Assembly (NCBI GenBank): GCA_029259725.1
Contig: JAJDER010000038.1
Span: forward strand, 5,784 to 69,783
DNA length: 64,000 bases
Source: Planctomycetota bacterium
GTDB lineage: Bacteria; Planctomycetota; B15-G4
Direction: 5' to 3'
Every line of letters begins with the position of its first letter. Position 1 is the stretch's first letter. The position numbers and the translations under genes were made by a program. Below the pieces are notes generated by a model. The model was not told the origin of the DNA and searched no databases. It saw only the letters and a list, made by a program, of their open reading frames with translations. This document shows positions 27,794 to 44,831 of this stretch, one piece after another.

Positions 27794-27976
27794 CGGACGG
27801 GTCCCAGACCGGGGAGAAGAGGGGTCCAGTGGCCCCCCGGGTGACCGGCCTCCGACGGACGGAGGAGCGGTATTTCGTGGCCCCAGGGTGGACACGGGGC
27901 GGATCTTAGTCGGGCTGGGGGCGCGGACACAAGGTTGGATCAGCGGACGGGAGCGTCCGGGATCCGACCGGCGTGG

Positions 27977-29095
27977 TCAGCGCTCCGGCGCCCGGGTCGC
28001 CTGGCTGCCGTAGTGGTGGATGCTGCCGTCGGGGGCCTCGATCCGCAGGCCGCCGAGCACGCCGGGCGAGACCCACGGATAGTCGAGCGGGACCTTGCCG
28101 TGGCCGCCGGGGACGTCGAGCAGGTACCGGGGCAGGGCGTACCCCGGGACGGTGCCGCGCAGGCCCCGCATCAGGGCGTACCCGGCCTGCACGCTGGTGC
28201 GCAGGTGGGCGGTGCCCGGGACCAGGTCCGCGTGGTGCAGGGCGTAGGGCCGGACCCCGGTCCGCATCAGCGCCCAGATGAGCGCGCGATGGGTCTCGAC
28301 GTCGGTGTTGATGCCGGCCAGCAGGACCGACTGGTTGAGCACGTCGATGCCCTGGGAGCGCAGCCGCGCGCAGGCCACCGCGGCCTGCTCGCTGACCTCG
28401 GCCGCGTGGTTGAAGTGGGTCACGACCAGGGTGTTCGTCCGCAGGCGGCCGAGGGCCGTCGCCAGCGCGGAGGTCACCCGGAACGGGTTCACCACCGGCA
28501 TGCGTGTGTGCAGGCGCAGGGACCAGACGTGGTCGAGGACGTCGAGCCGACCGAGCAGCGCGAGCAGCTTGTCGTCCCCGAGGGTCAGCGGGTCGCCGCC
28601 GGTGAGGATCACCTCGTGGATCTCGGGTTCGGCGGCGATCCAGGCCACGGCGTCGTCGAGGTCCCCCGCGGTGACGGCGTACTCGGCGTTGCCGACCATG
28701 CGCTTCCTGAAACAGTGCCGGCAGTGCACCGAGCAGGTCGGCGTGGGAAACAGGAGCACGCGATCGCGGTAGCGGCGCGTGATCGCGGGCAAGGGGTGCA
28801 GGCCGGGTTCCTCGTCGCCGATGGGGTCGGCGCGCTCCTCGGGGGAGGTCACCAGCTCCCGCGGCGACGGCACCGCCAGGGCCCAGACCGGATCGTCCTC
28901 GCCCGCCCGCTCCGCCAGGCCCAGGTAGTACGGCGTGGCGCGCATGCCGTACAGGGCGATGGCGGCCTCGATGCCGGGGCGGTCCAGCCCGGACAGGTCG
29001 AAGCGGCCGGGGAACAGCGTCTCGACGTCGGCCAGGGAGGTGGCGGCGTGGCCGTGCTGCCAGCGCCAGTCGGGGTGCGAGGGGATCATCGCCAC
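27977..29095 (-). CDS. KamA family radical SAM enzyme (lysine 2,3-aminomutase / EpmB-like)
   Basis: ITRRYRDRVL, CSVHCRHCFRK, EVILTGGDPL, RLHTRMPVVNP, NQSVLLAGIN, PRYLLDVPGGHGKVP. Confidence 0.92.
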   Translation of the reverse strand: MAMIPSHPDWRWQHGHAATSLADVETLFPGRFDLSGLDRPGIEAAIALYGMRATPYYLGLAERAGEDDPVWALAVPSPRELVTSPEERADPIGDEEPGLHPLPAITRRYRDRVLLFPTPTCSVHCRHCFRKRMVGNAEYAVTAGDLDDAVAWIAAEPEIHEVILTGGDPLTLGDDKLLALLGRLDVLDHVWSLRLHTRMPVVNPFRVTSALATALGRLRTNTLVVTHFNHAAEVSEQAAVACARLRSQGIDVLNQSVLLAGINTDVETHRALIWALMRTGVRPYALHHADLVPGTAHLRTSVQAGYALMRGLRGTVPGYALPRYLLDVPGGHGKVPLDYPWVSPGVLGGLRIEAPDGSIHHYGSQATRAPER

Positions 29096-29140
29096 CAGCC
29101 TCGCTCAACGTCCGGTCAGGCGGCAAGCGGCCCGGTGCGG

Positions 29141-29206
29141 GACCCGCCGCGCGACCCGCCGGCTGACCCGCCGGCTGACCCGCCGCCTGACCCGCCGCGT
29201 GATCCG
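29141..29206. repeat. 12-bp tandem array (GACCCGCCGnnn x5 plus a degenerate sixth) in a divergent intergenic region
   Basis: Units start at 29141, 29153, 29165, 29177, 29189 and 29201. Confidence 0.85.
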
Positions 29207-29269
29207 TGGGACACTGGTCGCGGCGCCTTCGGGTCGGACCTCGTGACGCGGCGCCTCGGGAGAGACGCG

Positions 29270-31333
29270 ATGTCGACCACCTCTCGGGTCCACCTCGGAG
29301 GGCTGCTGCTCGCGGGTCTGGTGCAGCCGCTGGGCCCGGTCACGGCCCAGTGCACCGAGGATTGGCTGGCACCCCCGGTCTTCGAAGCGGGCGGGGCCTT
29401 CGGTCGCGGACTCGACCTGCAGGGCGACCTGCTCGTCGTCGGAGCCGACGGCGTGGGCACGCCCGGCGGCGGTGAGGGCGTCCTCTACGTGTTTCGGGAG
29501 GTCGGGGCGGAGTGGGCCCTGGAGGTGAATATCCAGGGCGGGCTGAACAACAACGGCTTCGGCGAGCCGGCCGTCGTCGATGGTGAGCTCTTCCTCTACG
29601 GCTGGGACCTCGGCAACGAGCTGCATGTCACCGCGTACTGGGACGAGGACGGCGGTGCCGGCGACTGGATCTGGCTCTTCGGGGACTCGTTCCCCGGCGG
29701 TGGCCATGGTCTCGCGATGGACATCCACGAAGGCCTGTTCGCCTACGGAAACGCCTCCGACGTGGTCAAGTCGATCCGCTGGGACGGGCAGTCGCTCTCC
29801 TCGCACTCCTTCGCCCAGTCTCCGCGACCGCCGGCCGAGCAGGGCGACTTCGGCGCCGCCGTCGGCATCACACGTCCCGGCCAGACCGAGCTGCTCATCG
29901 TGGGGGAGCCCGAGAGCACCTCGGACCCCACGGCGCCGGGTGCGGTCCACGTCTTCCGCGAGGGTTCGGGGTGGGTGTTCCGGCAGACGCTCGCACCGGC
30001 CGACGTGTCGATCGGCGACGGCTTCGGCCGCGCGCTTTCCGTGGACCGCGAGACACTCGTCGTGACCGCGCCGTTCCAGGTGGGCCCGCGCGGGGAGGTC
30101 GGCGCGCTGTACGTCTACTCCATGGACACGGTCCTGCTCGAGTGGGTCCTCGTGCAGAAGCTTGTCGTCGACGAAGAGGATGCGTTCCTGGGCTTCCCGG
30201 TCGTGGACGTCGACGGCGACGACCTGGTGGCCTCCGCATCGGCCCTGGGCGAGCTGGTGGCCTACTACCACTTCCGGCGCAACGCCTCGGGGTTGTTCGC
30301 CCTGGAAGACGTCATCGCGCCCGCCGGGCTCACCGACCAGGACGGGTTCGGGCTCGGGCTCGCCCTGGACGACGGGCGCGTGGCGGCCGGCGCCCCCCGG
30401 CTCGACGCGGGTCCGCTCGAGGACGTGGGGGGCGTGGTGATCCACGAGTTCCCACCGGGGTGCCTCGCCGTCACCGGTGTCGTGCCGGATGCGGGGCTCT
30501 TCCACCAGCAGACGTCCGCCGTCATCGGCGGCCTTGGCTTCGAGCCGGCCCCGACGGCGGTCAGCTTCGGCGGGGCGCCGGCGACCTCCGTGACGTGGCT
30601 GTCGGAGACCACTCTGCTGGCCGACGCCCCTCCCGGCGTGCAGGGCCAGGTCGTCGATGTCACCGTCACCCAGGGCAGCGAGGGCGACACGCTCGCCGGG
30701 GGCTTCACCTACGTCGGCACCGAGATCCAGGTGCTCCATCCCGCTGCGGGCAACGTGACCGGGGGCCAGTCGATCGTGGTCACGGTGAGCTTCCCGACGA
30801 CGCTCGCTGACAGCAGCGCCAGCGTGAACGGGGCTCCGGCAGCGGTTGTCGGGCAGTTGTCGGCGGACACCTTCGAGCTGGTCACGCCCGGCGAGGTGGC
30901 CGTGCCGGGCGGGCCGGTCGACGTCGTCTTCACGAACGCCAACGGAGTCGGCGTCGCCGTTGCGGGCTTCACCTACACGCCGGCCCTGTCGGTGTCGGTC
31001 ACGGGCCAGACCGGGACCGGCGGTACGCTCGACCTCTGGTGGATCGACGACCCCGCTTCGACACCGGGCCAGCTGGTCTGGCTGTGGATCGACGACCCGT
31101 CGGTGCCCGACCTGCCCACGACGCTGCCTGCCTTCGGGGGAACGCTCCAGTCGCAACCGCTCGTCATGGTGCTCTCGGCATTCCCCGTGGGGTTCACGCC
31201 GGTCGCGCTTCCGTTCTCACCCGTGCCGGCCAGTCTGGGCGGGGTGCCGCTCTCGGCCCAGGGAGTCGTGACGGGGGAGGGCGGTGCCAAGGGCAGCTTC
31301 ACGAACGTGGCGGGATTTCAGATCCTCCCGTAG
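29270..31333 (+). CDS. Secreted FG-GAP (integrin-alpha-like) propeller + two IPT/TIG domains + C-terminal domain
   Basis: Start re-assigned to ATG 29270 (signal peptide); FGRGLDLQGDLLVVGA, FGAAVGI, FGRALSVD, FGLGLALDDGRVAAGAP repeats; IPT motif TAVSFGGAPATSVTWLSETTL. Confidence 0.82.
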   Translation: MSTTSRVHLGGLLLAGLVQPLGPVTAQCTEDWLAPPVFEAGGAFGRGLDLQGDLLVVGADGVGTPGGGEGVLYVFREVGAEWALEVNIQGGLNNNGFGEPAVVDGELFLYGWDLGNELHVTAYWDEDGGAGDWIWLFGDSFPGGGHGLAMDIHEGLFAYGNASDVVKSIRWDGQSLSSHSFAQSPRPPAEQGDFGAAVGITRPGQTELLIVGEPESTSDPTAPGAVHVFREGSGWVFRQTLAPADVSIGDGFGRALSVDRETLVVTAPFQVGPRGEVGALYVYSMDTVLLEWVLVQKLVVDEEDAFLGFPVVDVDGDDLVASASALGELVAYYHFRRNASGLFALEDVIAPAGLTDQDGFGLGLALDDGRVAAGAPRLDAGPLEDVGGVVIHEFPPGCLAVTGVVPDAGLFHQQTSAVIGGLGFEPAPTAVSFGGAPATSVTWLSETTLLADAPPGVQGQVVDVTVTQGSEGDTLAGGFTYVGTEIQVLHPAAGNVTGGQSIVVTVSFPTTLADSSASVNGAPAAVVGQLSADTFELVTPGEVAVPGGPVDVVFTNANGVGVAVAGFTYTPALSVSVTGQTGTGGTLDLWWIDDPASTPGQLVWLWIDDPSVPDLPTTLPAFGGTLQSQPLVMVLSAFPVGFTPVALPFSPVPASLGGVPLSAQGVVTGEGGAKGSFTNVAGFQILP

Positions 31334-32945: not shown

Positions 32946-35699
32946 CTAGCGCGGGTCGGCGACCACGAGCGTCGGTGGGCTCACGCCCAGGGGCGGGCCG
33001 CCCTGCGGATCCAGGAGCAGCACCTGGACCCATTCGCGGATGCCCCGCGTGGCGTGGTCGATGCTGAAGCCGCGCTCGACCTGGCCCGTCGGACCCAGCG
33101 ACTGCGGCGGGCGCAGCGTCGCGTGATCGCGGTAGAGCTCCCACTCGTCGCCCCGCACGAGGCGTGCGTCACCGGGTCCCGCGCGCACCGGGATCGCGCT
33201 TCCCGTCGTGTACACCCGCACGATCCCGTCGGGCGGGCCGTGGAGCTCGTAGTCGATCGCGGCGGCCATCCCGGAGCGCCGCTGCCCGGTCTGCACCACG
33301 CGCACGGGCGCCGTGTCCGTCTCCGGCTCCAACACCGCCAGCACGCGCAGCCAGCTCATCGCGTAGCCGAGCCCGACCGGTTCGTCCTCGACCAGGCCCA
33401 TCACGTACTTCTCGGGCAGCTCGTACTGCTGCGCGACGTCCGGATCGAGTCCGCGCAGGTAACCGAACGGCCGGCGGAAGTCGGCCTCCGTCACGTCCCA
33501 CATCAGCGCCATGCGCGCCAGGATCTCGGGGCGCAGTCCGATCGGCGCGACGGCGTAGGCATGGCCTTGTGCTTCGAGCCCGGTGGTGGGCGGGCCGCCG
33601 AAGGTGTCGCCCACGTCGCCATGCCAGTAGTCCGCCGGGTGGTCGCGGCAGTCACCCTGATACGTTCCCTTGAAGCAGATGCAGACCATCTCCCAGTTCT
33701 TGAAGAACGACTCGGTGAACTGGGCGTTGGTGAGCTGGCGTCCCTTGAAATCGTTGCCGGCCAGCTCCAGGATCGCGGCGCGGCGCAGCTGCATGTCGTG
33801 CAGCGGTTCATGGATGTTGCGAGGCAGCGCCATGAGGTCCAGCACGCCCTTGAACGCGCGCGGGCTGTCGCCGGCGCAGGCCGTGCCGAGACGGATGGCC
33901 TGGATCCAGAGCGTGTCGTCGACGGTGCCCTCGAGCGACAGCCGGTGGTCGGTGGCCTCCTCGACCAGTTCTCGCGCGCGCGGATGGGGATCGCTGCTCA
34001 CGCGCAGCAGCTCGGTCAGGTCCTTGGCCAGATACCCGTAGTGGTCGTCGGTGTCGTTCTCGAGGTCGTAGCGCGCGGCGTCCCAGTCGCGGTGGTAGAG
34101 CGAGAGCACCCTGTCGATGGCTGCGACGTCGGCCTCCTCGGGCATGAGCTCGTGCACGCGAGCGACGATCACGGCCGACTGGAAGACGTGGTACCAGAAG
34201 GTGCGCTGCTTCACGATCGCCCAGGCGGTGTTGTAGCGACGCGGGGTGTCGAGCTTTCCGGTCGGCGTGAGCTTGGGCGGCATGTGCCCGAACCAGTTGG
34301 GCGCCTCGCCTTCGAAGATGCCGGTGGCCGGGTCCAGCAGGCACTTGTCGTTGGGCTTCTCGGGGCCGAGGTCGTGGGTGCGCTGGAGCCACACCAGCGC
34401 CGTGGCCGCCTTGCGCGACTGCTCGATGCAGCGTCGTCGCAGGACCTGATCGGCCACCAGCTCGGCGGCGTCCAGCAGGAAGCCGACGTACTGGGCAACA
34501 TCGACGGACTCGTCCACCAGCGGCACGAGCCCGTTGCGTCGGACCACCTGCGGAAGCCCGCGCTCGTGGAAGTTGAAACGCAGCAGCGAGCGCGTGAACG
34601 TCTCCAGTCGCGGCGTCCAGCGCGCGATCTCGTCGCTCCAGCCGCGCTCGTGCGCGACGGCGAGCCAGTCCACGAGCAGCGTATGAGCGGTGTGCAGGCG
34701 CAAGAGACGCTCCGGTTGGCTGGGCTCGCCCGTGTTCACGTCGATGGCGTTGTAGAGCGTGTAGCCGGTGGCCGGCTCGACCAGCCCGAGTCCGCCCTCG
34801 TCGCGCGGCACGTGCCACAGGTCGAGCTGCTCGCGCACGAGCCGCTCGATGCGGTCTTCCATCTCCGCGGCCGTCACGCGAGGGAGGTGCACTGCCGCGA
34901 GGACCTCGTCGACGTACGCCACGGCATCGGGACCGCCCTCGCAGCGCACGTGGACGTTGAGGCGCGGCGTGGGCGGAGAGCCGTGCTCGACGACGAAACG
35001 CGTACCGACATCGACGCGCACTTTCGCCCAACGCACCTCACCACGCGATGACTCTCCGTTCCCGCTCGCCCAGGTCCCCTCGTTGCCGCCCAGCACGGCG
35101 CCTTCCGGTGTCCGCCATCCCGCGCGCAGCTCTCCGCCGTCCGCCATGTCGGCCGCAACGACCGCCGTCGTCCGGCGCCCCGTCCCGTCCTCGAGCTGGA
35201 TGACCAGGCGCGCGTCACCGAGCAAAGCGACCGCGAGCGAGACCTCGGTGCGATCGCTGAGCCGCGGATCCGCCACCACCTTCTGGAGCACCGCATCGCC
35301 CGGGTGCAGGACCAGACTGCGCTCGCCACGGAACGCCACCTCGTCAGTGACGCGGTCGGTCGGGTCACCCTCGACCGGCACGAAGGCCCCGACCCAGTAG
35401 GCGCCGTACTTGGGCGGCGTGGTGGTCCCGTCCGCGATGAGCTCGAAGCCGCCGTTCAGCAGACCATCGAGCCAGATCGTCTCGAACCCCGCGTTCGAGC
35501 TCGGTTCTCCACCGTCCTCCACCAGTTCTCCACCAGCGGGCGCAGCCCCGATGGATGCCTCATCATCCCGCAGGGACGAGGCTGCCTCGGCCAGATCCAC
35601 CGCTCCCGGCGCCGGCGGGTCCTGGGCTCCCCCGGGTTCTCCACAAGCCAGCAGGGCGGCCAGCGACAGCGCGATGGCGAGACGAGGGGAGCGGGGCAC
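32946..35699 (-). CDS. Large hypothetical lipoprotein (CBM-like N-domain, long helical core)
   Basis: LAALLAC lipobox after GTG 35699; GLLNGGFE motif; no family recognised. Confidence 0.6.
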   Translation of the reverse strand: MPRSPRLAIALSLAALLACGEPGGAQDPPAPGAVDLAEAASSLRDDEASIGAAPAGGELVEDGGEPSSNAGFETIWLDGLLNGGFELIADGTTTPPKYGAYWVGAFVPVEGDPTDRVTDEVAFRGERSLVLHPGDAVLQKVVADPRLSDRTEVSLAVALLGDARLVIQLEDGTGRRTTAVVAADMADGGELRAGWRTPEGAVLGGNEGTWASGNGESSRGEVRWAKVRVDVGTRFVVEHGSPPTPRLNVHVRCEGGPDAVAYVDEVLAAVHLPRVTAAEMEDRIERLVREQLDLWHVPRDEGGLGLVEPATGYTLYNAIDVNTGEPSQPERLLRLHTAHTLLVDWLAVAHERGWSDEIARWTPRLETFTRSLLRFNFHERGLPQVVRRNGLVPLVDESVDVAQYVGFLLDAAELVADQVLRRRCIEQSRKAATALVWLQRTHDLGPEKPNDKCLLDPATGIFEGEAPNWFGHMPPKLTPTGKLDTPRRYNTAWAIVKQRTFWYHVFQSAVIVARVHELMPEEADVAAIDRVLSLYHRDWDAARYDLENDTDDHYGYLAKDLTELLRVSSDPHPRARELVEEATDHRLSLEGTVDDTLWIQAIRLGTACAGDSPRAFKGVLDLMALPRNIHEPLHDMQLRRAAILELAGNDFKGRQLTNAQFTESFFKNWEMVCICFKGTYQGDCRDHPADYWHGDVGDTFGGPPTTGLEAQGHAYAVAPIGLRPEILARMALMWDVTEADFRRPFGYLRGLDPDVAQQYELPEKYVMGLVEDEPVGLGYAMSWLRVLAVLEPETDTAPVRVVQTGQRRSGMAAAIDYELHGPPDGIVRVYTTGSAIPVRAGPGDARLVRGDEWELYRDHATLRPPQSLGPTGQVERGFSIDHATRGIREWVQVLLLDPQGGPPLGVSPPTLVVADPR

Positions 35700-35811
35700 G
35701 AGGGTGGTGGCTTCCGGCGGGCGGGGCTGGATGTGCAGACTGGGCGCACGTGGCGGAAGCACAACCCGGCCGCGTGGATCGTGTTGTTTCCCCACCTTAG
35801 AATCCGGCCCC

Positions 35812-36685: not shown

Positions 36686-37267
36686 ATGGTGAGGATCTCC
36701 GCCATCGTCGCCATGACCGCGGACCGGCTCATCGGCCGCGGCAACGACCTGCCCTGGCACTGGCCCGAGGACATGCGCCACTTCAAGCACTTCACCAAGG
36801 GACACACCGTGGTGATGGGGCGGCGCAGCTGGGAGTCCATGCCCGGCGGCCTGCCCGACCGCACCAACGTGGTCATCTCCACCAGCAAGGCGGCCGGCGC
36901 GCCCCCCGACGGCCTCGAACTCGAGGGCGCGCTGTGGTTCCCGTCGCTGGGCGCGACCTTCGACTGGGCCGCGCGACGGACCGATGCCGGGACCAAGCTG
37001 GGCGAGATCTTCATCCTCGGTGGCGGCGCGCTGTTCAAGGGCGTGCTCGAACCGCTCGACACCGTGCCTGCCGCCGGCAAGCTGCCCGTCTACGTACCCG
37101 AGCGCCTGGTCGTGACCTGGGTCCCCGACGTGCCCATCAAGGACGACGACGTCCTGTTCCCGTACGACCGCGCTTGGCTGCTGAAGCACTTCCAGGTGAA
37201 GCAGTCCTGGAACAGCGAGAGCGGCGAGCTGCAGTTCGAGGTCTTCGAGCGGACGCCGGCGCGCTGA
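36686..37267 (+). CDS. folA: Dihydrofolate reductase
   Basis: IVAMTADRLIGRGNDLPWHWPEDMRHFK, VVMGRRSWES, LPDRTNVVIS, IFILGGG; AGGAG SD. Confidence 0.93.
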   Translation: MVRISAIVAMTADRLIGRGNDLPWHWPEDMRHFKHFTKGHTVVMGRRSWESMPGGLPDRTNVVISTSKAAGAPPDGLELEGALWFPSLGATFDWAARRTDAGTKLGEIFILGGGALFKGVLEPLDTVPAAGKLPVYVPERLVVTWVPDVPIKDDDVLFPYDRAWLLKHFQVKQSWNSESGELQFEVFERTPAR

Positions 37268-39012
37268 GTCCCTCGGACGGTATCGGTCACGCGGGGCTGA
37301 TCGCGGACGCGGACCCTCTGCTGGTCCTCGCGGTCGTGGTCGTGGGCGGCCTCGGCGCGGGCTGGCTGGCGCGCAAGGTCAAGATCGCCGGGGTCACCGG
37401 CCAGATCCTGATCGGCGTGCTCATCGGTCGCTCGGGGCTCGAGCTGTTCAACGAGGCGGACGTCGAGGCGCTCGCGCCGATGACCCACTTCGCCCTGGGG
37501 CTGATCGCGGTCACCGTCGGCGGGCACCTCAACCTGCGCCGGCTGCACGGCGCGCACAGGCGGCTCGGGTTGCTGGTCCTGGCCGAGCTGATCATCACGC
37601 CGCTGCTGGTCTACACCGCCGTGGTCGGCGTGCTCGGCGCCGACTGGCGCACGGGCCTGTTGCTCTCGGCCCTGGCCATCTCCACGGCCCCGGCCACGAT
37701 CGTCGCGCTGATCCACGAGATGCGCGCGCGCGGCGTGTTCACCAAGACGCTGGTCGGCGCGGTCGCGCTCAACAACATCGCCTGCATCGCCGCCTTCGAG
37801 GTGGCGCACATGGCGGCGCGGGTCGGGCTCACCGTGGGCGGTGGCGTCGATGGCGGAGCGGTGGCCGAGCCGACGGTCCTGGACTACCTGCTCGCCCCGG
37901 TCCAGGAGCTGGTGCTCTCAGGTGGCCTGGGCTTCGCCGTGGGCGCGGCGCTGGTGGCGCTGACACGCAAGGTGGTACGGGCCGAGCAGCTGGCCACGGC
38001 GTCGGTGGTCTGCGTGCTGCTCACGGCCGGCATGGCGGACCAGCTCGGCCTGTCGCCGCTGCTGACCTGCCTGTTCCTGGGCATGACGCTGGCCAACCTG
38101 ACGCCCGACAAGGACGAGATCGTCGAGTCGGCCTTCGTCAACGCGCGGCAGGCGCTGTTCGCGGTGTTCTTCACCCTGGCCGGCATGCACCTCGACATGG
38201 GTGCGCTGGTCGCCGCCAGCGGGCTCGTGGCGGCGGCGTTCCTGGGGCGGCTGCTGGGCAAGGTCACCGCCGGGCACATCGCGCTGGGCATCGCCGGAGC
38301 CACCGAGAACGTGCGTCGACACATCGGCCCGGCGCTGGTTCCCCAGGCCGGTGTGGCCGTCGGTCTGCTCATGACGGTCACGGCCGACCCCGCCATGGCG
38401 CCCCTGGCGGACGCGCTGCTCGCGGTCGGGCTCGCCGTCGTGACGGCCAACGAACTGCTCGGCCCGTTCCTCGTGCGCAACGCGCTGGTGAAGACCGGGG
38501 AGGCCGGCGCCGACCGCGACCGCATCCTCGAGTTCCTGCACGAGGAGAACATCGTCGTCGACCTCCAGGCCGACACGAAGGAGGAGGCCATCGAACGTCT
38601 GGTCGACGTGTTGATCCGCACCAACCACCTCGATGCCGACCGCGAGCGCATGCTCAAGAGCGTGCTCGACCGCGAGGCGGACATGTCGACCTGCTTCGGC
38701 GAGGGCCTGGCCGTGCCGCACGGCATCTTCGAGGGCGGCGAGAGCATCGTCGGTGCCATGGGCCTCTCGGCGCGCGGCCTGCGCTTCGACACGCCCGACG
38801 GCATCCCGGTGCACTGCATGGTCGTGCTGGCCACGCCGGCGACCGAGCGCGACCGGCACCTGCAGGTCCTCGCCGCGCTGGCCAAGGCCATCGGCACCGA
38901 TCCCAACCGGCAGCGCCAGTTGTTCGCGTCGGTGTCCCCGGCGCACGCCTACGAACTGCTGCACGCCGAGGAAGGCACCGAGGACTTCAACTGGTACCTC
39001 GACGAGGACTGA
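37264..39012 (+). CDS. Cation:proton antiporter (CPA) fused to a PTS EIIA (Ntr/Fru-type) domain; start uncertain, possibly CTG
   Basis: About 12 TMs, TAPATI, PQAGVAVG; C-terminal TKEEAI...READMSTCFGEGLAVPH...HLQVLAALAK. Confidence 0.85.
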   Translation: MSPSDGIGHAGLIADADPLLVLAVVVVGGLGAGWLARKVKIAGVTGQILIGVLIGRSGLELFNEADVEALAPMTHFALGLIAVTVGGHLNLRRLHGAHRRLGLLVLAELIITPLLVYTAVVGVLGADWRTGLLLSALAISTAPATIVALIHEMRARGVFTKTLVGAVALNNIACIAAFEVAHMAARVGLTVGGGVDGGAVAEPTVLDYLLAPVQELVLSGGLGFAVGAALVALTRKVVRAEQLATASVVCVLLTAGMADQLGLSPLLTCLFLGMTLANLTPDKDEIVESAFVNARQALFAVFFTLAGMHLDMGALVAASGLVAAAFLGRLLGKVTAGHIALGIAGATENVRRHIGPALVPQAGVAVGLLMTVTADPAMAPLADALLAVGLAVVTANELLGPFLVRNALVKTGEAGADRDRILEFLHEENIVVDLQADTKEEAIERLVDVLIRTNHLDADRERMLKSVLDREADMSTCFGEGLAVPHGIFEGGESIVGAMGLSARGLRFDTPDGIPVHCMVVLATPATERDRHLQVLAALAKAIGTDPNRQRQLFASVSPAHAYELLHAEEGTEDFNWYLDED

Positions 39013-39146
39013 GCGAAGAGGACTGAGCGCTTCGGTACCCGGCGTTGCCTTCGCGCGCTGCCTTCCCCCGGATCCGGGCGTACTCGACTAGACTGGGCGC
39101 TGTCCGTCGCCGGGGCAGTGCGATCGGTCCACTGAGGGAGAGAGCC

Positions 39147-40622
39147 ATGCGTTGCGTCCAGCTCGTCGGAATCGCCGCCGCGGTCGTGCTGCTCGGCAGC
39201 GCACCGGCCGCCGCCCAGATCGTGTTCGCGGCTCCCGAAGTCCAGGACACGCCCGACGTCTTCCCCCTCGCGGTACTCGCCGCCGACTTCACCGGCGACG
39301 GCCACACCGATCTCATCGGGTCCACCCTCTTCGGTGGATACGTGTTCGTGCAGGGCGGTGCGGACGGGCCCGGTCTCCCGACGCAGATGGCGTCGCCCGG
39401 CTTCCTCGCCGGTGCCGTGATCCTGGATGACGACCTCGACGGCGTGCTCGACCTGGCGACGCGGGCCTCGACCGCCGTGCAGATCCTCCTCGGTGACGGC
39501 GACGGGACGTTCAGCACCGGCGCGAAGCACGAGTTGTCCTTGTCCGTCCAGGGCCTGGCGCTCGGCGAGCTGACCGGCGACGGGGTGCCGGATCTGGCCG
39601 TGGCGAGCCAGGCGATCTTCGCCGGCGGCTCGCTCGACCTGCTGCCCGGGGAAGCCGGCGGCGGCTTCGGAGCAAAGCTCCAGATCGCCGACGTCTCCGA
39701 GACGTCGTACTCGGGCCTCTCGCTCGGTGACGTGGATGGCGACGGACTCGACGATGTCGTGGCCAGCGGCGGGTTCGGCGCACCGATCGTCGTGCGTTCC
39801 CAGGGTGGCGGAGTGTTCGGTCCGCCGCAGGCTCTGGGGGAACCCAACGGCGTAGGAGTGCTCGTCCACGAGTTGACGGGGGACGGCCTCGCCGACATCG
39901 TCGTCCACGGAGGCAACGCCAAGGTCCGCGAGAGCCTCGGTGGCGGGGACTTCGGCGCGCCGGTCACGCTCGCGCCGACGCTCGGCGCCACCGGCGGCTT
40001 CGAGGTGGTCAGCGGGGATCTGGATGGTGACGGGCGCGCCGACCTCGCCGTGGGGACCGGCAGCTCGATCTGGTCAGGTGTCACCGCGATCCACAACGCC
40101 GGTGCGCTGGCCTTCACCGAGATGGGCACCGTCAAGCTCCCGGCCGCCAGTCCGAACGCCCTGACCCTGGCGGACATGGACGGCAACGGTCAGGTCGACC
40201 TCGCGCTGACCGGCAACATGCTCGTGGGCACGGTGATCAATCACTCCTACGGGCCGGGCGCGCCCTGGGTGGACCTCGGGAACGCCCTCGACCCGATCGC
40301 CGGTCCGCCGATCCTGTTCGCCACCGGAGACTTGCTCCCCGACAGCGACGTGTCGCTCACCGTGCAGCTCGCTCCGCCCGGACTGCTCTGGCTGGTGGTC
40401 GGCTTCGACGCCGGCTTCGCGCGGTTCCAGGGCGGCACGCTGGTGCCCACGCCCGATCGACTGTGGGGGCCGTTCGCCACCGATGGCATGACCGACATGG
40501 TCCTCGAGACCAGTTGGCCCGCCGGCCTCGCGTCGGGGCTCGAGCTCTGGATGCAGGCCTGGATCGCAGCGGCCGGCGACGAGGTCGCGGGGAGCAACGC
40601 GCTCCAGGCGACCGTGCCTTGA
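39147..40622 (+). CDS. Secreted FG-GAP/VCBS repeat protein with C-terminal domain
   Basis: Signal peptide; ADFTGDGHTDL, GELTGDGVPDLAVA, GDVDGDGLDDVV, GDLDGDGRADLAV, ADMDGNGQVDL. Confidence 0.9.
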   Translation: MRCVQLVGIAAAVVLLGSAPAAAQIVFAAPEVQDTPDVFPLAVLAADFTGDGHTDLIGSTLFGGYVFVQGGADGPGLPTQMASPGFLAGAVILDDDLDGVLDLATRASTAVQILLGDGDGTFSTGAKHELSLSVQGLALGELTGDGVPDLAVASQAIFAGGSLDLLPGEAGGGFGAKLQIADVSETSYSGLSLGDVDGDGLDDVVASGGFGAPIVVRSQGGGVFGPPQALGEPNGVGVLVHELTGDGLADIVVHGGNAKVRESLGGGDFGAPVTLAPTLGATGGFEVVSGDLDGDGRADLAVGTGSSIWSGVTAIHNAGALAFTEMGTVKLPAASPNALTLADMDGNGQVDLALTGNMLVGTVINHSYGPGAPWVDLGNALDPIAGPPILFATGDLLPDSDVSLTVQLAPPGLLWLVVGFDAGFARFQGGTLVPTPDRLWGPFATDGMTDMVLETSWPAGLASGLELWMQAWIAAAGDEVAGSNALQATVP

Positions 40623-40697
40623 TCCGACCTGTCCACCTGGCGCGGCTCGTCGGTGCGCAGTGGCTCGCGGCACCCTCTGCGGCGCGGCGGTCCTGCC

Positions 40698-41969
40698 CTA
40701 CGCCTTCACCAGCACCAGCTCCGTCTGCCGGCCATCCACGTAGCGCACCGCGCTGCCGTCGTAGACCGCCTCTTCCTCGAGCATGATGTGCACGTCGAGG
40801 TCGCCCCACTCGGGGATGGCCATGGTGTTGTCGAGCTCGATTGCGTGCAGCGTGTCGGCCTCCAGCACGGCCTGCTCGCCCCAGCCGGGGACGCCGTCCT
40901 GTCGGTCCCACAGGCCGATGGTCGGGCCGGCGCCGTGGACCACGTGGTCCACCGGGTGCGTGTAGATGCGTGGACGCAGGCCCTCGGCCTCGCACTGCGC
41001 GCGCGTGGCGGCCAGGATCGAGTCGCCGTTGGCGCCGACCTCGAAGTGGTCGCAGAGGATGTCCTGCACGCGGTTGGCGGCGGCCAGCGCGGCGACCAGG
41101 CCCGCCGGCGCCGCGGTCTCGCCGGGTTTCAGCACGTAGGCGTGGCGCTGCGCGTCGGTGGCGAAGCCCAGGTAGTCGACGCCGACGTCGATGTGCAGCA
41201 GGTCGCCGGGGCGGATCACGTCGCCGCCGTCACGGTCCGCGAAGGACCCGTCGTGCACCGCCGAGGGACGCTGCACCGTGGCCGAAGGTTGGAACGACGG
41301 CGTGAGCGTGGCCTCGGCGATGCGCTGGCGGTACCACCACGCGAGGTCGGTGGTGGTCGTCTTGCCCGGCGCCAGCGCCGGGCGCTCCAGCCCCTCGGCC
41401 ATGATCGCGTGGGCGATGCGGCAGCCCGCGGCGAACCCCTCGACCTCCGTGGGCAACCGTCGCGAGAGCCAGCTCAGCGCGAGCTGCCCGGCGGGCACCA
41501 CGCGCTCGCGCAGCGCCGGCGACAGCGCGGCGAGGAACGCGTCGCGCTCCGACGCGGTGAGTCCGTCGGCCAGGCCGTAGACCGGCGAGGTGTTGACGGC
41601 GATGCGCGACGGACCGCGCGCGGCGATGAGTTCGGTCGTGCGCGCCCACTGGTCGGGATGGGTGTCGGGGTCCCAGGAGGCGGTGAACGCATCGCCCACC
41701 GCGTAGCGCGCGACGGCCAGGGTCTCGACGCCGTCGCTCCCGCCGCGGTCGAAGAGCAGCAGCGTCGTGCGCCGCGGCGCCTGCAGCCAGGAACTCGGCA
41801 GCATCGAGCGCAGCACCGGGTCCTCGTTGAACGATCGCCCGCTGATCATCCAGCAGTCGACGCCGGCGGCGCGCAGCATGCCCGGACCGAAGCGCTGCAG
41901 ACGCTCGGCCAGCCATCGGTCGCGCTGCTCACCCTGCTCACGCAGGGTCAGGATGGGGGGGACGGGCAT
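40698..41969 (-). CDS. M24 family (Xaa-Pro aminopeptidase-like) metallopeptidase
   Basis: VIRPGDLLHIDVG..YLGFATDAQR, HPVDHVVHGAGPTIG, ELD..EE; start re-assigned to ATG 41969. Confidence 0.85.
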   Translation of the reverse strand: MPVPPILTLREQGEQRDRWLAERLQRFGPGMLRAAGVDCWMISGRSFNEDPVLRSMLPSSWLQAPRRTTLLLFDRGGSDGVETLAVARYAVGDAFTASWDPDTHPDQWARTTELIAARGPSRIAVNTSPVYGLADGLTASERDAFLAALSPALRERVVPAGQLALSWLSRRLPTEVEGFAAGCRIAHAIMAEGLERPALAPGKTTTTDLAWWYRQRIAEATLTPSFQPSATVQRPSAVHDGSFADRDGGDVIRPGDLLHIDVGVDYLGFATDAQRHAYVLKPGETAAPAGLVAALAAANRVQDILCDHFEVGANGDSILAATRAQCEAEGLRPRIYTHPVDHVVHGAGPTIGLWDRQDGVPGWGEQAVLEADTLHAIELDNTMAIPEWGDLDVHIMLEEEAVYDGSAVRYVDGRQTELVLVKA

Positions 41970-42059
41970 TGCGGCTCCTCCGTCGACGGGTGGGATATCG
42001 TACCGCGAGCGAACTGGGGGATGCGCAACGCCGCGACCTGCGGCATGTTCTTGGAGGCC

Positions 42060-42995
42060 ATGACCGAGATCCTCCCGACCGCCCCGCGCTGGCGCCGACC
42101 GCTCGTCCTGGTCACGCTGCTGCTGCTGGCCTACGGCCTGCTGAGCTGGAGCGTGGCTGGCATCGTGATCGGTGCGCACCACCGGCCCGAGGTCACAACG
42201 CCCGCGGACTTCGGGCTGGAGTATGAGTCGATCACGCTGACCTCCGAGGACGGTGTCGAGCTCCAGGCCTGGCTGGTGGAGCCGGTGGAGGGGCCGGGGC
42301 CCGAGAGCTGGATGCGCTGGGACGGGGGTGCGCCGCGCGGCACCGTGCTCGTCTTCCACGGCATCGGCGGCGACCGGCCGGCGCACTACCAGTACCTGCT
42401 CGCGCACGCCGGCTACCGCGCGATCGCCGTGGACCACCGCGCGCACGGGCGCAGCGGCGGGGAGATCTGCTCCTTCGGCTGGTACGAGCGCCTGGACGTC
42501 GAGGCCGGCGTCACGTACGCGCGCGAGCGCTGGCCCGGAGAGCCGCTGGGCGCGCTGGGCCTCTCCATGGGCGCCGCGGCCATCGCCTGCGCTCCGTCCG
42601 CGCGAGACTTCGACGCGATCGTGCTGGAGTCCGTCTACGCCGACGTCGACAGCGCCTACCGCACGCGCATGGATCTCTACTTCCCGGCCTGGGTCCACCC
42701 CCTCGCCTGGCTGTCGCGGCAGTTCGTCGAGGTGCGCCTCGACGCGAGCGCCGAGGACCTGAGCCCGGTGGACCGCCTGTCGGAGATCGACCCGTCCCGC
42801 CTGCTCATGGTGCGCGGCGCCGACGACGAGCTGGTGTCCGAGGGCGAGTACCAGCGCCTGCGCGCCGCGGTCCCCGACGCGGAGTGGATCGTGCTCGAGG
42901 GCCGCGGCCACGAGTCCTTCGTGCCGGGCGCGGGCCAGCCGTACCGGCAGCGGGTCGTCTCGTTCCTGTGGAAGCGGATGGACGGGCCGCGCTGA
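42060..42995 (+). CDS. Membrane-anchored alpha/beta hydrolase
   Basis: GGAGG SD, N-terminal TM, VLVFHG, DHRAHGRSGG, GLSMGAA nucleophile elbow, GADD, GRGH. Confidence 0.9.
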   Translation: MTEILPTAPRWRRPLVLVTLLLLAYGLLSWSVAGIVIGAHHRPEVTTPADFGLEYESITLTSEDGVELQAWLVEPVEGPGPESWMRWDGGAPRGTVLVFHGIGGDRPAHYQYLLAHAGYRAIAVDHRAHGRSGGEICSFGWYERLDVEAGVTYARERWPGEPLGALGLSMGAAAIACAPSARDFDAIVLESVYADVDSAYRTRMDLYFPAWVHPLAWLSRQFVEVRLDASAEDLSPVDRLSEIDPSRLLMVRGADDELVSEGEYQRLRAAVPDAEWIVLEGRGHESFVPGAGQPYRQRVVSFLWKRMDGPR

Positions 42996-43004
42996 AGGAG
43001 CAGC

Positions 43005-44831
43005 TCAGCGCGTGGTCAGCTCCAGCGTGTTCGAGGCGCACCAGCCGAAGACGGCGCCGGCATCCACGATCCAGTGCTGGATCCAGACCTCGGTGCCGGC
43101 CGGCACGCCCGGGGGCACCTCGAACAGGGTGAGGTTGTCGCCGGTGGGGGTCAGCGGCACCGCCACGAGGAGGTCGGGCGACGGTCCCAGCACACCGCCC
43201 TTGAACGGCGCGTCGATCGCCGAGAATCCGGCGATGAGCAGGCTGGTGCCGGCGTCGGGCGCGTCGACCAGGCACAGCTCGTTGAAGACTTCCTCCCCGG
43301 CGACGGCGGCGCCGCAGCCGCGCAGCAGCGGAACGGCCATCGCGTTGACGGCCAGACCCCGGAACTCATCGTGCACGTCTCCGAGCTTCGTCACCCCGCC
43401 CGTCGTCGTGATCGTGCACAGCGTCCGGGCCAGATCCGTGACCAGCAGCAGGCCGTCGTCCCGCACGGCCATGCCCAGGATCTCGTCGTAGTTGTGGCCC
43501 GACAGCGGGACGTTGACCACGGGCGCGCCGCTCGGGTGCACCGTCTCCAGGATCTCCGCGGTGTTGGGCGTCCCGATGCCCGAGGCGTGGTAGAGCAGGC
43601 CTTCGCCCGGGTGATAGACGATCTGCTCGCCGTCGGTGCCGTTGCCCAGGGGCGCCAGCAGCGTCGGCGTGCCGTCGGTCAGGTCGACCGTGTAGAGCGT
43701 CTCGGGCGTGTTCGCTCCGTCGCCCGTGACCGCGTAGAGGGTGCCGTCCGCGGCGAAGGTCAGGCCCGAGAACCGGTCACCCAGCCCGCCGATGTCGACC
43801 GTGTCGCCCGTCAGCAGATCCACCTTGACGAGGCGGCGGATCTCGTCACCCGGGACGATGGCGTAGGACTCACCGGTCTGGGGGTGGCGGGACAGTCCGT
43901 AGCACTTGCTGACGCCCAGGGACAGGGTCGAGTGGGTGATGAACTCCCCCGTGTGCGCGTTCAGGCGCTCGATCCTCCCGCCCTTGGTGATGGCCCAGAT
44001 CTGGTTCGGGTTCGGCCCGGTGAGCAGGCCCGGCCCGTGCAGGCGGAACGCATTGGGCGCGCCGACGAGCGACAGGCCGCTCGTGAGGGGCAGGTGGCCG
44101 ACTTCGGTCACCACGCCGCTGGTCGTGACCTCGAACAGGCGGCCGTCCTGCTCGTCCACCAGCAGCAGGATGTCCTCGGTGAGGTGGATGACGTCGGACA
44201 CGCCGCCGAAGTCGTCGCCCGAGAGCGGGATCGGCACGATCGGTGAGCCGCTGGGGTCGACGACCTCCAGGACCTCGTCCACGTTGGGCATGCCGTCGCC
44301 GGACACGTGGTAGAGCAGGCCGTCGATCGGGTTGAAGGCGATCGCCTCGCCCTGGGTGCCGGCGCCGAGCGGCGTGATGAGCGTGGGCGTGCCGTCGGTC
44401 GTGTCGATCAGGTAGAGCGCCTCGGGGACGCCCGCATCGTCGGCGGTCACGGCGTAGAGCGTGCCGTCGCGGCCGAAGGTGAGCCGCTCGAACGAGTCGC
44501 CGGTGTTGCCGACGTCGGTGCCGGAGCCGGTCTCGGGATCCACCGCGATGAGGTGTCGCCCGCTGACCATCAACACGTCCATGAAGGTGTACAGCTGCCC
44601 GGTCTGCGGATGGAGGGCGAGGCCGTGCGCCCCCTGGATGTCCAGCCCCGGGACATCCAGGAACGCGGCGTCCAGGGTCCAGCCTCCCGACAGATCCACC
44701 GTGCGCAGGATGAGCCCCTCCACGGACCAGGCGCTGTTCTGCGGGCAGAGCGGGTCCTCCAAGGCCTCGGCCGGAGACGGGCCCGGCATCAAGATGACCA
44801 GCAGCGTGAAGGCAAGGGTTCTCGCGCGCAT
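43005..44831 (-). CDS. Secreted beta-propeller repeat protein (internally duplicated) with C-terminal domain
   Basis: Signal peptide; two copies of LTF..DGTLYAVT...LY..D.TDGTPTL..PLG.GT.GE.I...P..GLLYH.SG. Confidence 0.75.
   Translation of the reverse strand: MRARTLAFTLLVILMPGPSPAEALEDPLCPQNSAWSVEGLILRTVDLSGGWTLDAAFLDVPGLDIQGAHGLALHPQTGQLYTFMDVLMVSGRHLIAVDPETGSGTDVGNTGDSFERLTFGRDGTLYAVTADDAGVPEALYLIDTTDGTPTLITPLGAGTQGEAIAFNPIDGLLYHVSGDGMPNVDEVLEVVDPSGSPIVPIPLSGDDFGGVSDVIHLTEDILLLVDEQDGRLFEVTTSGVVTEVGHLPLTSGLSLVGAPNAFRLHGPGLLTGPNPNQIWAITKGGRIERLNAHTGEFITHSTLSLGVSKCYGLSRHPQTGESYAIVPGDEIRRLVKVDLLTGDTVDIGGLGDRFSGLTFAADGTLYAVTGDGANTPETLYTVDLTDGTPTLLAPLGNGTDGEQIVYHPGEGLLYHASGIGTPNTAEILETVHPSGAPVVNVPLSGHNYDEILGMAVRDDGLLLVTDLARTLCTITTTGGVTKLGDVHDEFRGLAVNAMAVPLLRGCGAAVAGEEVFNELCLVDAPDAGTSLLIAGFSAIDAPFKGGVLGPSPDLLVAVPLTPTGDNLTLFEVPPGVPAGTEVWIQHWIVDAGAVFGWCASNTLELTTR

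Follow-up and report, generated by a model that had tools for sequence, protein, structure and literature searches.

A large uncatalogued terminal domain family on exported proteins of a planctomycete class and its possible role in envelope docking

We analyzed a 64,000-nucleotide stretch of DNA (the window; C127:5784-69783 in our numbering) from the 4.79-Mb, 195-contig genome of a Planctomycetota bacterium and found that two of its proteins, an FG-GAP repeat protein and a beta-propeller-like protein, end in the same domain of about 122 amino acids. This domain is a member of a real, very large, uncatalogued family. We tentatively read it as a position-tolerant module that docks (retains) exported proteins on the cell envelope by means of a small invariant polar site, a reading to which we give a probability of roughly 0.4. 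An initial annotation of the window had proposed a C-terminal domain common to four secreted proteins and had offered two functions for it, surface attachment or the sorting of proteins into an undescribed secretion route. The domain is indeed a lineage-specific terminal module common to unrelated exported proteins, and of the two functions, surface attachment is likelier than strict sorting.

The tails of the FG-GAP and propeller proteins were 39% identical over 77 amino acids by BLASTP (E=2e-8), and a leave-out profile, built without the window tails, detected them with E values of 1.7e-29 and 6.8e-30, respectively. When only these two tails were used to build a hidden Markov model (HMM), it retrieved more than 100 further six-frame open reading frames (ORFs) in the genome. 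The limits first given to the domain in the FG-GAP gene, 40250-40622, match the HMM envelope plus the stop codon, while the length first given, about 100 amino acids, was too short because the conserved W-x-D-L-G start lies further upstream. The FG-GAP protein ORF spans 39045-40622 (+), probably starts at 39147 with a signal-like N terminus (MRCVQLVGIAAAVVLLGSAPAAAQ), and matches FG-GAP_3 (1.2e-26) and FG-GAP (3.6e-16) in Pfam. The propeller protein begins with a putative export signal (MRARTLAFTLLVILMPGPSPAEA) and matches DUF4394 (7.2e-10), with DUF6923 and Tachylectin below the cutoff. By heuristics alone, the N-terminal export signals ascribed to the two proteins are plausible. The propeller copy of the domain bears the typical motifs APFKGGVLGPSPD and QHWIVD...ASNTL; the FG-GAP copy is slightly atypical, with a Q in place of K60 (domain numbering) and without D107.

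The two other proteins to which the domain had been assigned are not detectable members. The tail of the FG-GAP/IPT protein (FG-GAP_2/TIG, 27935-31333, +) reached a probability of 5% in an hhalign comparison with the family profile and of 1.4% when used as a four-sequence profile, and the tail of the 949-amino-acid protein at 32946-35795 (-), which has no paralogue in the genome, gave 0.4%. Neither tail showed similarity to the member tails by BLASTP or iterated HMM search, and the AlphaFold2 (AF2) model of the FG-GAP/IPT tail was of unusably low confidence (pLDDT 46). The FG-GAP/IPT tail (...VTGEGGAKGSFTNV...P-stop) is a separate, rare one, with a single paralogue in the genome (C182:23497-25863) and three metagenomic relatives of the same architecture in 5.8 billion proteins. 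The 949-amino-acid protein has a lipoprotein-like N terminus (...LSLAALLACGEPGG) and matched no Pfam or NCBIfam family over its whole length.

We counted the family in the genome with a profile, A1, made from 66 tail sequences. This profile gave 150 matches, of which 138 (about 92%) end within 8 residues of a stop codon. The domain starts with the motif W-x-D-L-G-x-x-L-x-G-x-x-G-x-P-x-L-x-G-x-G-x-L and ends in a conserved ...ASNGLxxTTP-stop, the terminal Pro being present in 91 of the 138 C-terminal copies. Of 3098 gene-like ORFs, 125 (about 4%, or 1 in 25) are tail genes, which occupy 5.5% of the DNA and occur in clusters of up to 7 within 19 kb. On a 5.29-Mb contig from the same family (G014:C2), a near-complete chromosome, the tail genes are concentrated by region: of the 70 copies listed for it, about 30 fall between 4.19 and 5.13 Mb and 19 between 1.99 and 2.94 Mb, and the first 1.4 Mb has very few.

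Each of the 41 genomes that share the class with the window's genome carries the domain; the class, 42 genomes in total, coincides here with the order. Copy numbers range from about 70 to more than 107 per genome in families f1 and f2, and copies are fewer and more divergent in families f4 and f5; those in the low-copy f5 genomes were merely divergent (20-70 bits) and gave no lead to linked machinery. Of 251 Planctomycetota genomes sampled evenly across the phylum, 45 were positive. A search of 1.84 billion representatives of 50%-identity protein clusters found 8308 at E<=1e-3, and in all of the best 150 of these the domain lies within 12 residues of the C terminus. About 1 gene in 25 across a whole planctomycete class, and metagenomic proteins by the thousand, bear this one unannotated domain. 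None of the 66 tails matched any Pfam or NCBIfam family, even at E<=1, and these results included no carbohydrate-binding module (CBM). PDB sequences likewise yielded no match. Our literature searches found no description of the domain.

All named records with the domain are uncultured Planctomycetota metagenome-assembled genomes (MAGs), apart from one labeled Pseudohongiellaceae (Gammaproteobacteria). Two contigs of that MAG encode typical members, a tail gene (L076, JBLIMM010000067.1) and a tail-MBL hydrolase (P0165), and the MAG probably received misbinned planctomycete contigs. We infer that the carriers are high-GC Planctomycetota of the Saltatorellus/Engelhardtia type, on the basis of a GC content of about 70% and of a protein in a genome of the same family (G014) that is orthologous, at 74% identity, to one from Engelhardtia mirabilis. 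The GC content fits the Saltatorellus clade (bioRxiv 10.1101/817700; bioRxiv 10.64898/2026.10.26.761892). E. mirabilis itself lies outside the 42 class genomes that we examined.

The proteins that carry the domain are diverse. Pfam searches of 57 full-length members matched 30 families, among them FG-GAP types (10-14 members per FG-GAP family), PKD (6 members), sulfatase (3), GSDH (3), and Peptidase_C25 (2), as well as ASPIC/UnbV, spondin_N, endonuclease I, reprolysin, metallophosphatase, EEP, MBL, LTD, C-type lectin, and kelch; no glycoside hydrolase family occurs among the 25 families listed. Signal-peptide-like N termini were found in 91% of family members versus 52% of control ORFs by a loose rule and in 47% versus 22% by a strict rule, both rules being crude heuristics of our own rather than SignalP predictions. 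These figures suggest that the tail proteins are exported by Sec. Since the strict rule yielded 55 signal peptides and just 2 of them showed a lipobox-like motif, most of the cargo would be without another anchor.

The domain had been expected to be strictly C-terminal, and this holds for the large majority of copies but not for a conserved minority. The 12 of 150 copies that are not C-terminal are N-terminal, internal, or fragments. On contig C165, a signal peptide is followed without a gap by the domain and then by an MBL hydrolase, and contigs C135, C39, and C86 have the same order of signal peptide, domain, and then other domains, for example, FG-GAP repeats (C39). An assembly artifact cannot account for the signal peptide-domain-MBL architecture, since 78 of the 120 best homologues show it, one of them from the cultured E. 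mirabilis, and it occurs in 15 class genomes. Two sulfatases (L135, G000:C116:3604-5475, -; L136, G000:C21:283-4092, -) have a divergent copy inserted into the SGSH_C subdomain and followed by about 72 sulfatase residues. The domain is also internal in a protein of MAG Co_metawrap_1940 (L062:566-2224, +), where it lies between a thrombospondin-C/LamG-like N-terminal domain and a C-terminal domain of about 170 amino acids.

MBL orthologues of other lineages, 55-59% identical, showed what else can occupy the N-terminal slot. In three of them (P0258, P0267, and P0276) the slot holds a type I dockerin (Dockerin_1), in another (P0272) it holds a lipobox and a Ser/Thr-rich tether, and in others it holds nothing. 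Because three different anchoring devices occupy one slot of the MBL protein, these swaps point to docking rather than translocation.

Structure prediction gave a confident all-beta model for the FG-GAP copy, with 11 strands (AF2; pLDDT 91.3, pTM 0.85), and returned generic fold neighbors only. In a Foldseek search of the PDB, the model had no match at E<1e-3, and the best neighbors were generic sandwiches at TM scores of 0.36-0.51, namely FN3, the beta-GRP N-domain (CBM39), CBM21, LPMO, MD-1, and NPC2. The tails are uniformly acidic (median isoelectric point [pI] 4.07, net charge -5) and poor in Lys and Arg, and His accounts for 0.6% of their residues. Overall pairwise tail identity is just 42%, and yet among 468 distinct sequences Q102 and S/T117 are conserved in 100%, G62 in 99%, D107 in 98.7%, N118 in 92%, and K60 in 82%. 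Mean-field direct coupling analysis (DCA; Meff 445) paired strands 9/11 (104-116, 98-121), 6/11 (65-119), and 4/9 (46-103) and linked positions 62-102 and 7-118. The conserved polar residues probably form one patch on the adjoining strands 9, 11, 6, and 1, since DCA places the strands that carry them side by side, although covariation, from which this clustering is derived, is weak evidence for invariant columns. Concerted evolution of the tails within the genome was not seen: compared with a sample of 100 tails from other genomes, 46 of 122 tails had their best match in another genome. This lack of homogenization fits a conserved ligand and not a rapidly coevolving private receptor.

We searched for known secretion machinery and for a partner. 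PorV (PF19572) was found in 0 of 13 genomes, and the positive control, B. thetaiotaomicron, matched; SprA (TIGR04189) was likewise found in 0 of 13, with the control equally silent. Type A tails of the type IX secretion system (T9SS; Por_Secre_tail, PF18962) gave three marginal matches in the 42 class genomes, again with a silent control, and the profiles of the T9SS C-terminal domain (CTD; PF18962/TIGR04183 and TIGR04131) matched neither the window proteins nor any of the 66 tails at E<=1. Signals of the PEP-CTERM, LPXTG, or other sortase kind consist of a short motif, a hydrophobic helix, and a basic tail; the tails have no hydrophobic or PEP-like terminus and end instead in ...ASNGLxxTTP. 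They did not match the type I dockerin family (PF00404), and no CBM family appeared in their Pfam results. We also considered a C25 peptidase as a PorU-like sortase and rejected it: C25 peptidases are carried as cargo (2 proteins), and their phyletic pattern does not follow the tail, as they are absent from the tail-rich genomes G001, G004, G008, G016, and G023, present in 140 of the 251 phylum genomes, and common in tail-less Planctomycetota. Among the neighbors of about 170 tail genes (331 non-tail ORFs at about 130 loci in about 20 genomes), the largest recurrent cluster had 6 members, and the Pfam tally consisted of only ECF sigma factors (5/131) and GDSL lipases (4), with no machinery gene.

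According to the docking reading, some 150 Sec-exported proteins per genome would carry the acidic 11-strand beta-sandwich, and after export the folded domain would bind one common, conserved envelope ligand noncovalently. Candidate ligands are a surface glycan, such as lipopolysaccharide (LPS) or capsule, and a receptor protein. Binding would hold at the cell surface a set of propellers, sulfatases, peptidases, nucleases, and phosphatases that would otherwise lack an anchor, and the tail would be retained rather than cleaved. The putative binding site is the polar patch of Q102, D107, S/T117, and N118, usually with K60 and D7, beside conserved tryptophans. We count in favor of docking the scale of the family and diversity of its cargo, the position tolerance, the equivalence of devices in the MBL slot, the paucity of lipoboxes, the absence of PorV together with the near-absence of type A T9SS tails, the conserved site, the nonhomogenized tails, and the separation of dockerins and tails among genomes described below. 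Were docking and its target known, one could define which proteins make up the surface of the Saltatorellus clade, with its shape-changing, fusing cells, annotate thousands of "hypothetical" exoproteins, and perhaps gain a new display tag. The occurrence of the domain in cultured E. mirabilis makes the question testable at the bench.

Several known systems resemble this picture in part. Type I dockerins (PF00404), which pair with cohesins, are likewise small, position-tolerant, mostly C-terminal additions to many secreted enzymes, and they take the same slot in orthologous MBL hydrolases; unlike the domain described here, which is all-beta and twice as large, a dockerin is a Ca2+-binding helical pair, and no cohesin-like partner was identified. 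In the 251-genome sample, 25 genomes were rich in dockerins (at least 12 PF00404 matches) and 45 bore tails, and no genome belonged to both groups (hypergeometric P of about 0.005 at the genome level, by our own arithmetic), a separation that is only suggestive, as a weak ecological pattern. SLH, CWB2, and LysM modules also sit at either end of exported proteins and hold them on the envelope through a common polymer, but they have no sequence or fold relationship to this domain, and the organism here is a diderm.

A number of observations weigh against docking. No partner or ligand was found, no neighbor gene recurred beside the tail genes, and the generic fold matches (TM 0.4-0.5, none at E<1e-3) give no functional lead. 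The extreme C-terminal bias (92% of copies and 150/150 best representatives) and the terminal Pro (91/138) are equally expected of a C-terminal signal. No flexible linker separates cargo and domain, unlike in many anchoring modules, and so acidic a domain (pI about 4.1) is ill suited to simple electrostatic binding of anionic envelope polymers. When families rather than genomes are counted (about 13 and 15), the dockerin/tail separation has a P of about 0.1, again by our own arithmetic, and is not significant. A more specific form of docking is doubtful, though conceivable: the domain might serve as a shared address label in a surface-display system, so far undescribed, of the shapeshifting Saltatorellus/Engelhardtia clade, in which the products of about 4% of genes, many of them integrin-like FG-GAP propellers, would be docked via one invariant Q/D/S-T/N site on a single envelope ligand or receptor to build a protein coat for adhesion, cell-cell contact, and fusion, with the receptor or machinery encoded elsewhere.

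The C-terminal bias and conserved end would also suit a sorting signal, that is, a folded domain recognized in the periplasm by a lineage-specific outer-membrane translocon or shuttle, a nonhomologous analog of the T9SS, and then cleaved or covalently attached. The T9SS CTDs of Bacteroidota (PF18962/TIGR04183; type B, TIGR04131) are likewise small C-terminal beta-sandwiches on tens to hundreds of unrelated Sec-exported proteins per genome, so that copy number and cargo variety are alike, and the gingipain-type C25 peptidases that are T9SS tailed in Bacteroidota bear the present tail here. The T9SS CTD is a 7-strand sandwich of about 75 profile positions, unlike the 11 predicted strands and roughly 122 residues of this domain, and the two share no HMM match. 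A signal of the T9SS-CTD or PEP-CTERM type requires a C-terminal position, and the conserved N-terminal and internal copies therefore make strict sorting less likely; PorV is missing from the 13 genomes searched, type A tails are all but absent from the 42 class genomes, the distribution of C25 peptidases does not follow the tail, and no machinery gene recurs beside the tail genes. We regard such a sorting signal as rather unlikely, and its strict form, as first put forward, is not supported.

The module might instead face outward, like a lectin or CBM-like adhesin, and target particles, polysaccharides, prey, or partner cells, serving the substrate targeting or adhesion of many secreted enzymes and integrin-like propellers rather than self-attachment. 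The CBM39 (beta-GRP/GNBP3 N-domain), CBM21, LPMO, and ML (MD-1, NPC2) domains among its best structural neighbors, the CBM-like tolerance of position, and the invariant Gln, Asp, Asn, and Ser with conserved Trp, a typical sugar-binding chemistry shared with CBM39, CBM21, and ML domains, are consistent with this idea. The likeness is weak and generic, however, and comes with no sequence similarity; the cargo is not dominated by carbohydrate-active enzymes, and it would be unusual for a CBM to occur in a single uniform form on about 4% of the genes. On balance, outward binding seems unlikely. A structural or self-associating cap, which would stabilize or oligomerize proteins through a buried cross-link or Ca2+ site (Q102, D107, S/T117) or through a tail-tail surface lattice and would require no separate receptor, is the least probable explanation and in our view quite improbable. 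Ester and isopeptide adhesin domains have a buried Thr/Ser-Gln or Lys-Asn pair and a catalytic acid, and here Gln, Asp, and Ser/Thr are invariant on neighboring strands; the ester-bond adhesin domains 8dj2 and 8fha were among the weak fold matches (TM about 0.3), the absence of a partner gene would be expected of a cap, and the terminal Pro could guard against carboxypeptidases. Known ester-bond domains need His, however, and no His is conserved here, and a Lys isopeptide cannot be obligatory at 82% conservation of K60. The fold matches are too weak to count, and attachment to such a wide range of unrelated folds would be unexpected for a mere stabilizer.

The features of the window that bear on the domain are listed in Table 1.

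Table 1. Positions in the window of the terminal domain, its carrier genes, and the two tails that are not members
Feature	Position	Strand	Basis
Terminal domain, complete copy, C terminus of FG-GAP protein	40254..40619	+	HMM envelope = ORF residues 410-531; stop codon 40620-40622
Cargo 1, FG-GAP repeat protein gene (signal peptide, FG-GAP propeller, terminal domain)	39147..40622	+	Translation, Pfam
Cargo 1, predicted Sec signal peptide	39147..39218	+	Read from sequence; heuristic only
Terminal domain, complete copy, C terminus of propeller protein	43008..43394	-	HMM envelope; stop codon 43005-43007
Cargo 2, two-lobed beta-propeller-like protein gene (signal peptide, DUF4394/DUF6923/tachylectin-like repeats, terminal domain)	43005..44831	-	Translation, Pfam
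Tail of FG-GAP_2/TIG protein, about 120 amino acids, not a detectable member; separate rare tail	30971..31333	+	hhalign
Tail of 949-amino-acid protein, about 118 amino acids, not a member	32946..33299	-	hhalign

Between the two tail genes of the window lies a gene (40653-42995, +) for a 780-amino-acid protein in which an alpha/beta-hydrolase domain (Hydrolase_4/S33) is confined to the last third, with the N-terminal 550 amino acids unassigned. Upstream of the FG-GAP gene lies another (36934-39012, +) that joins the membrane domain of a Na+/H+ exchanger to a PTS EIIA-2 regulatory domain at the C terminus (Pfam E values of 4.8e-21 and 7e-24).

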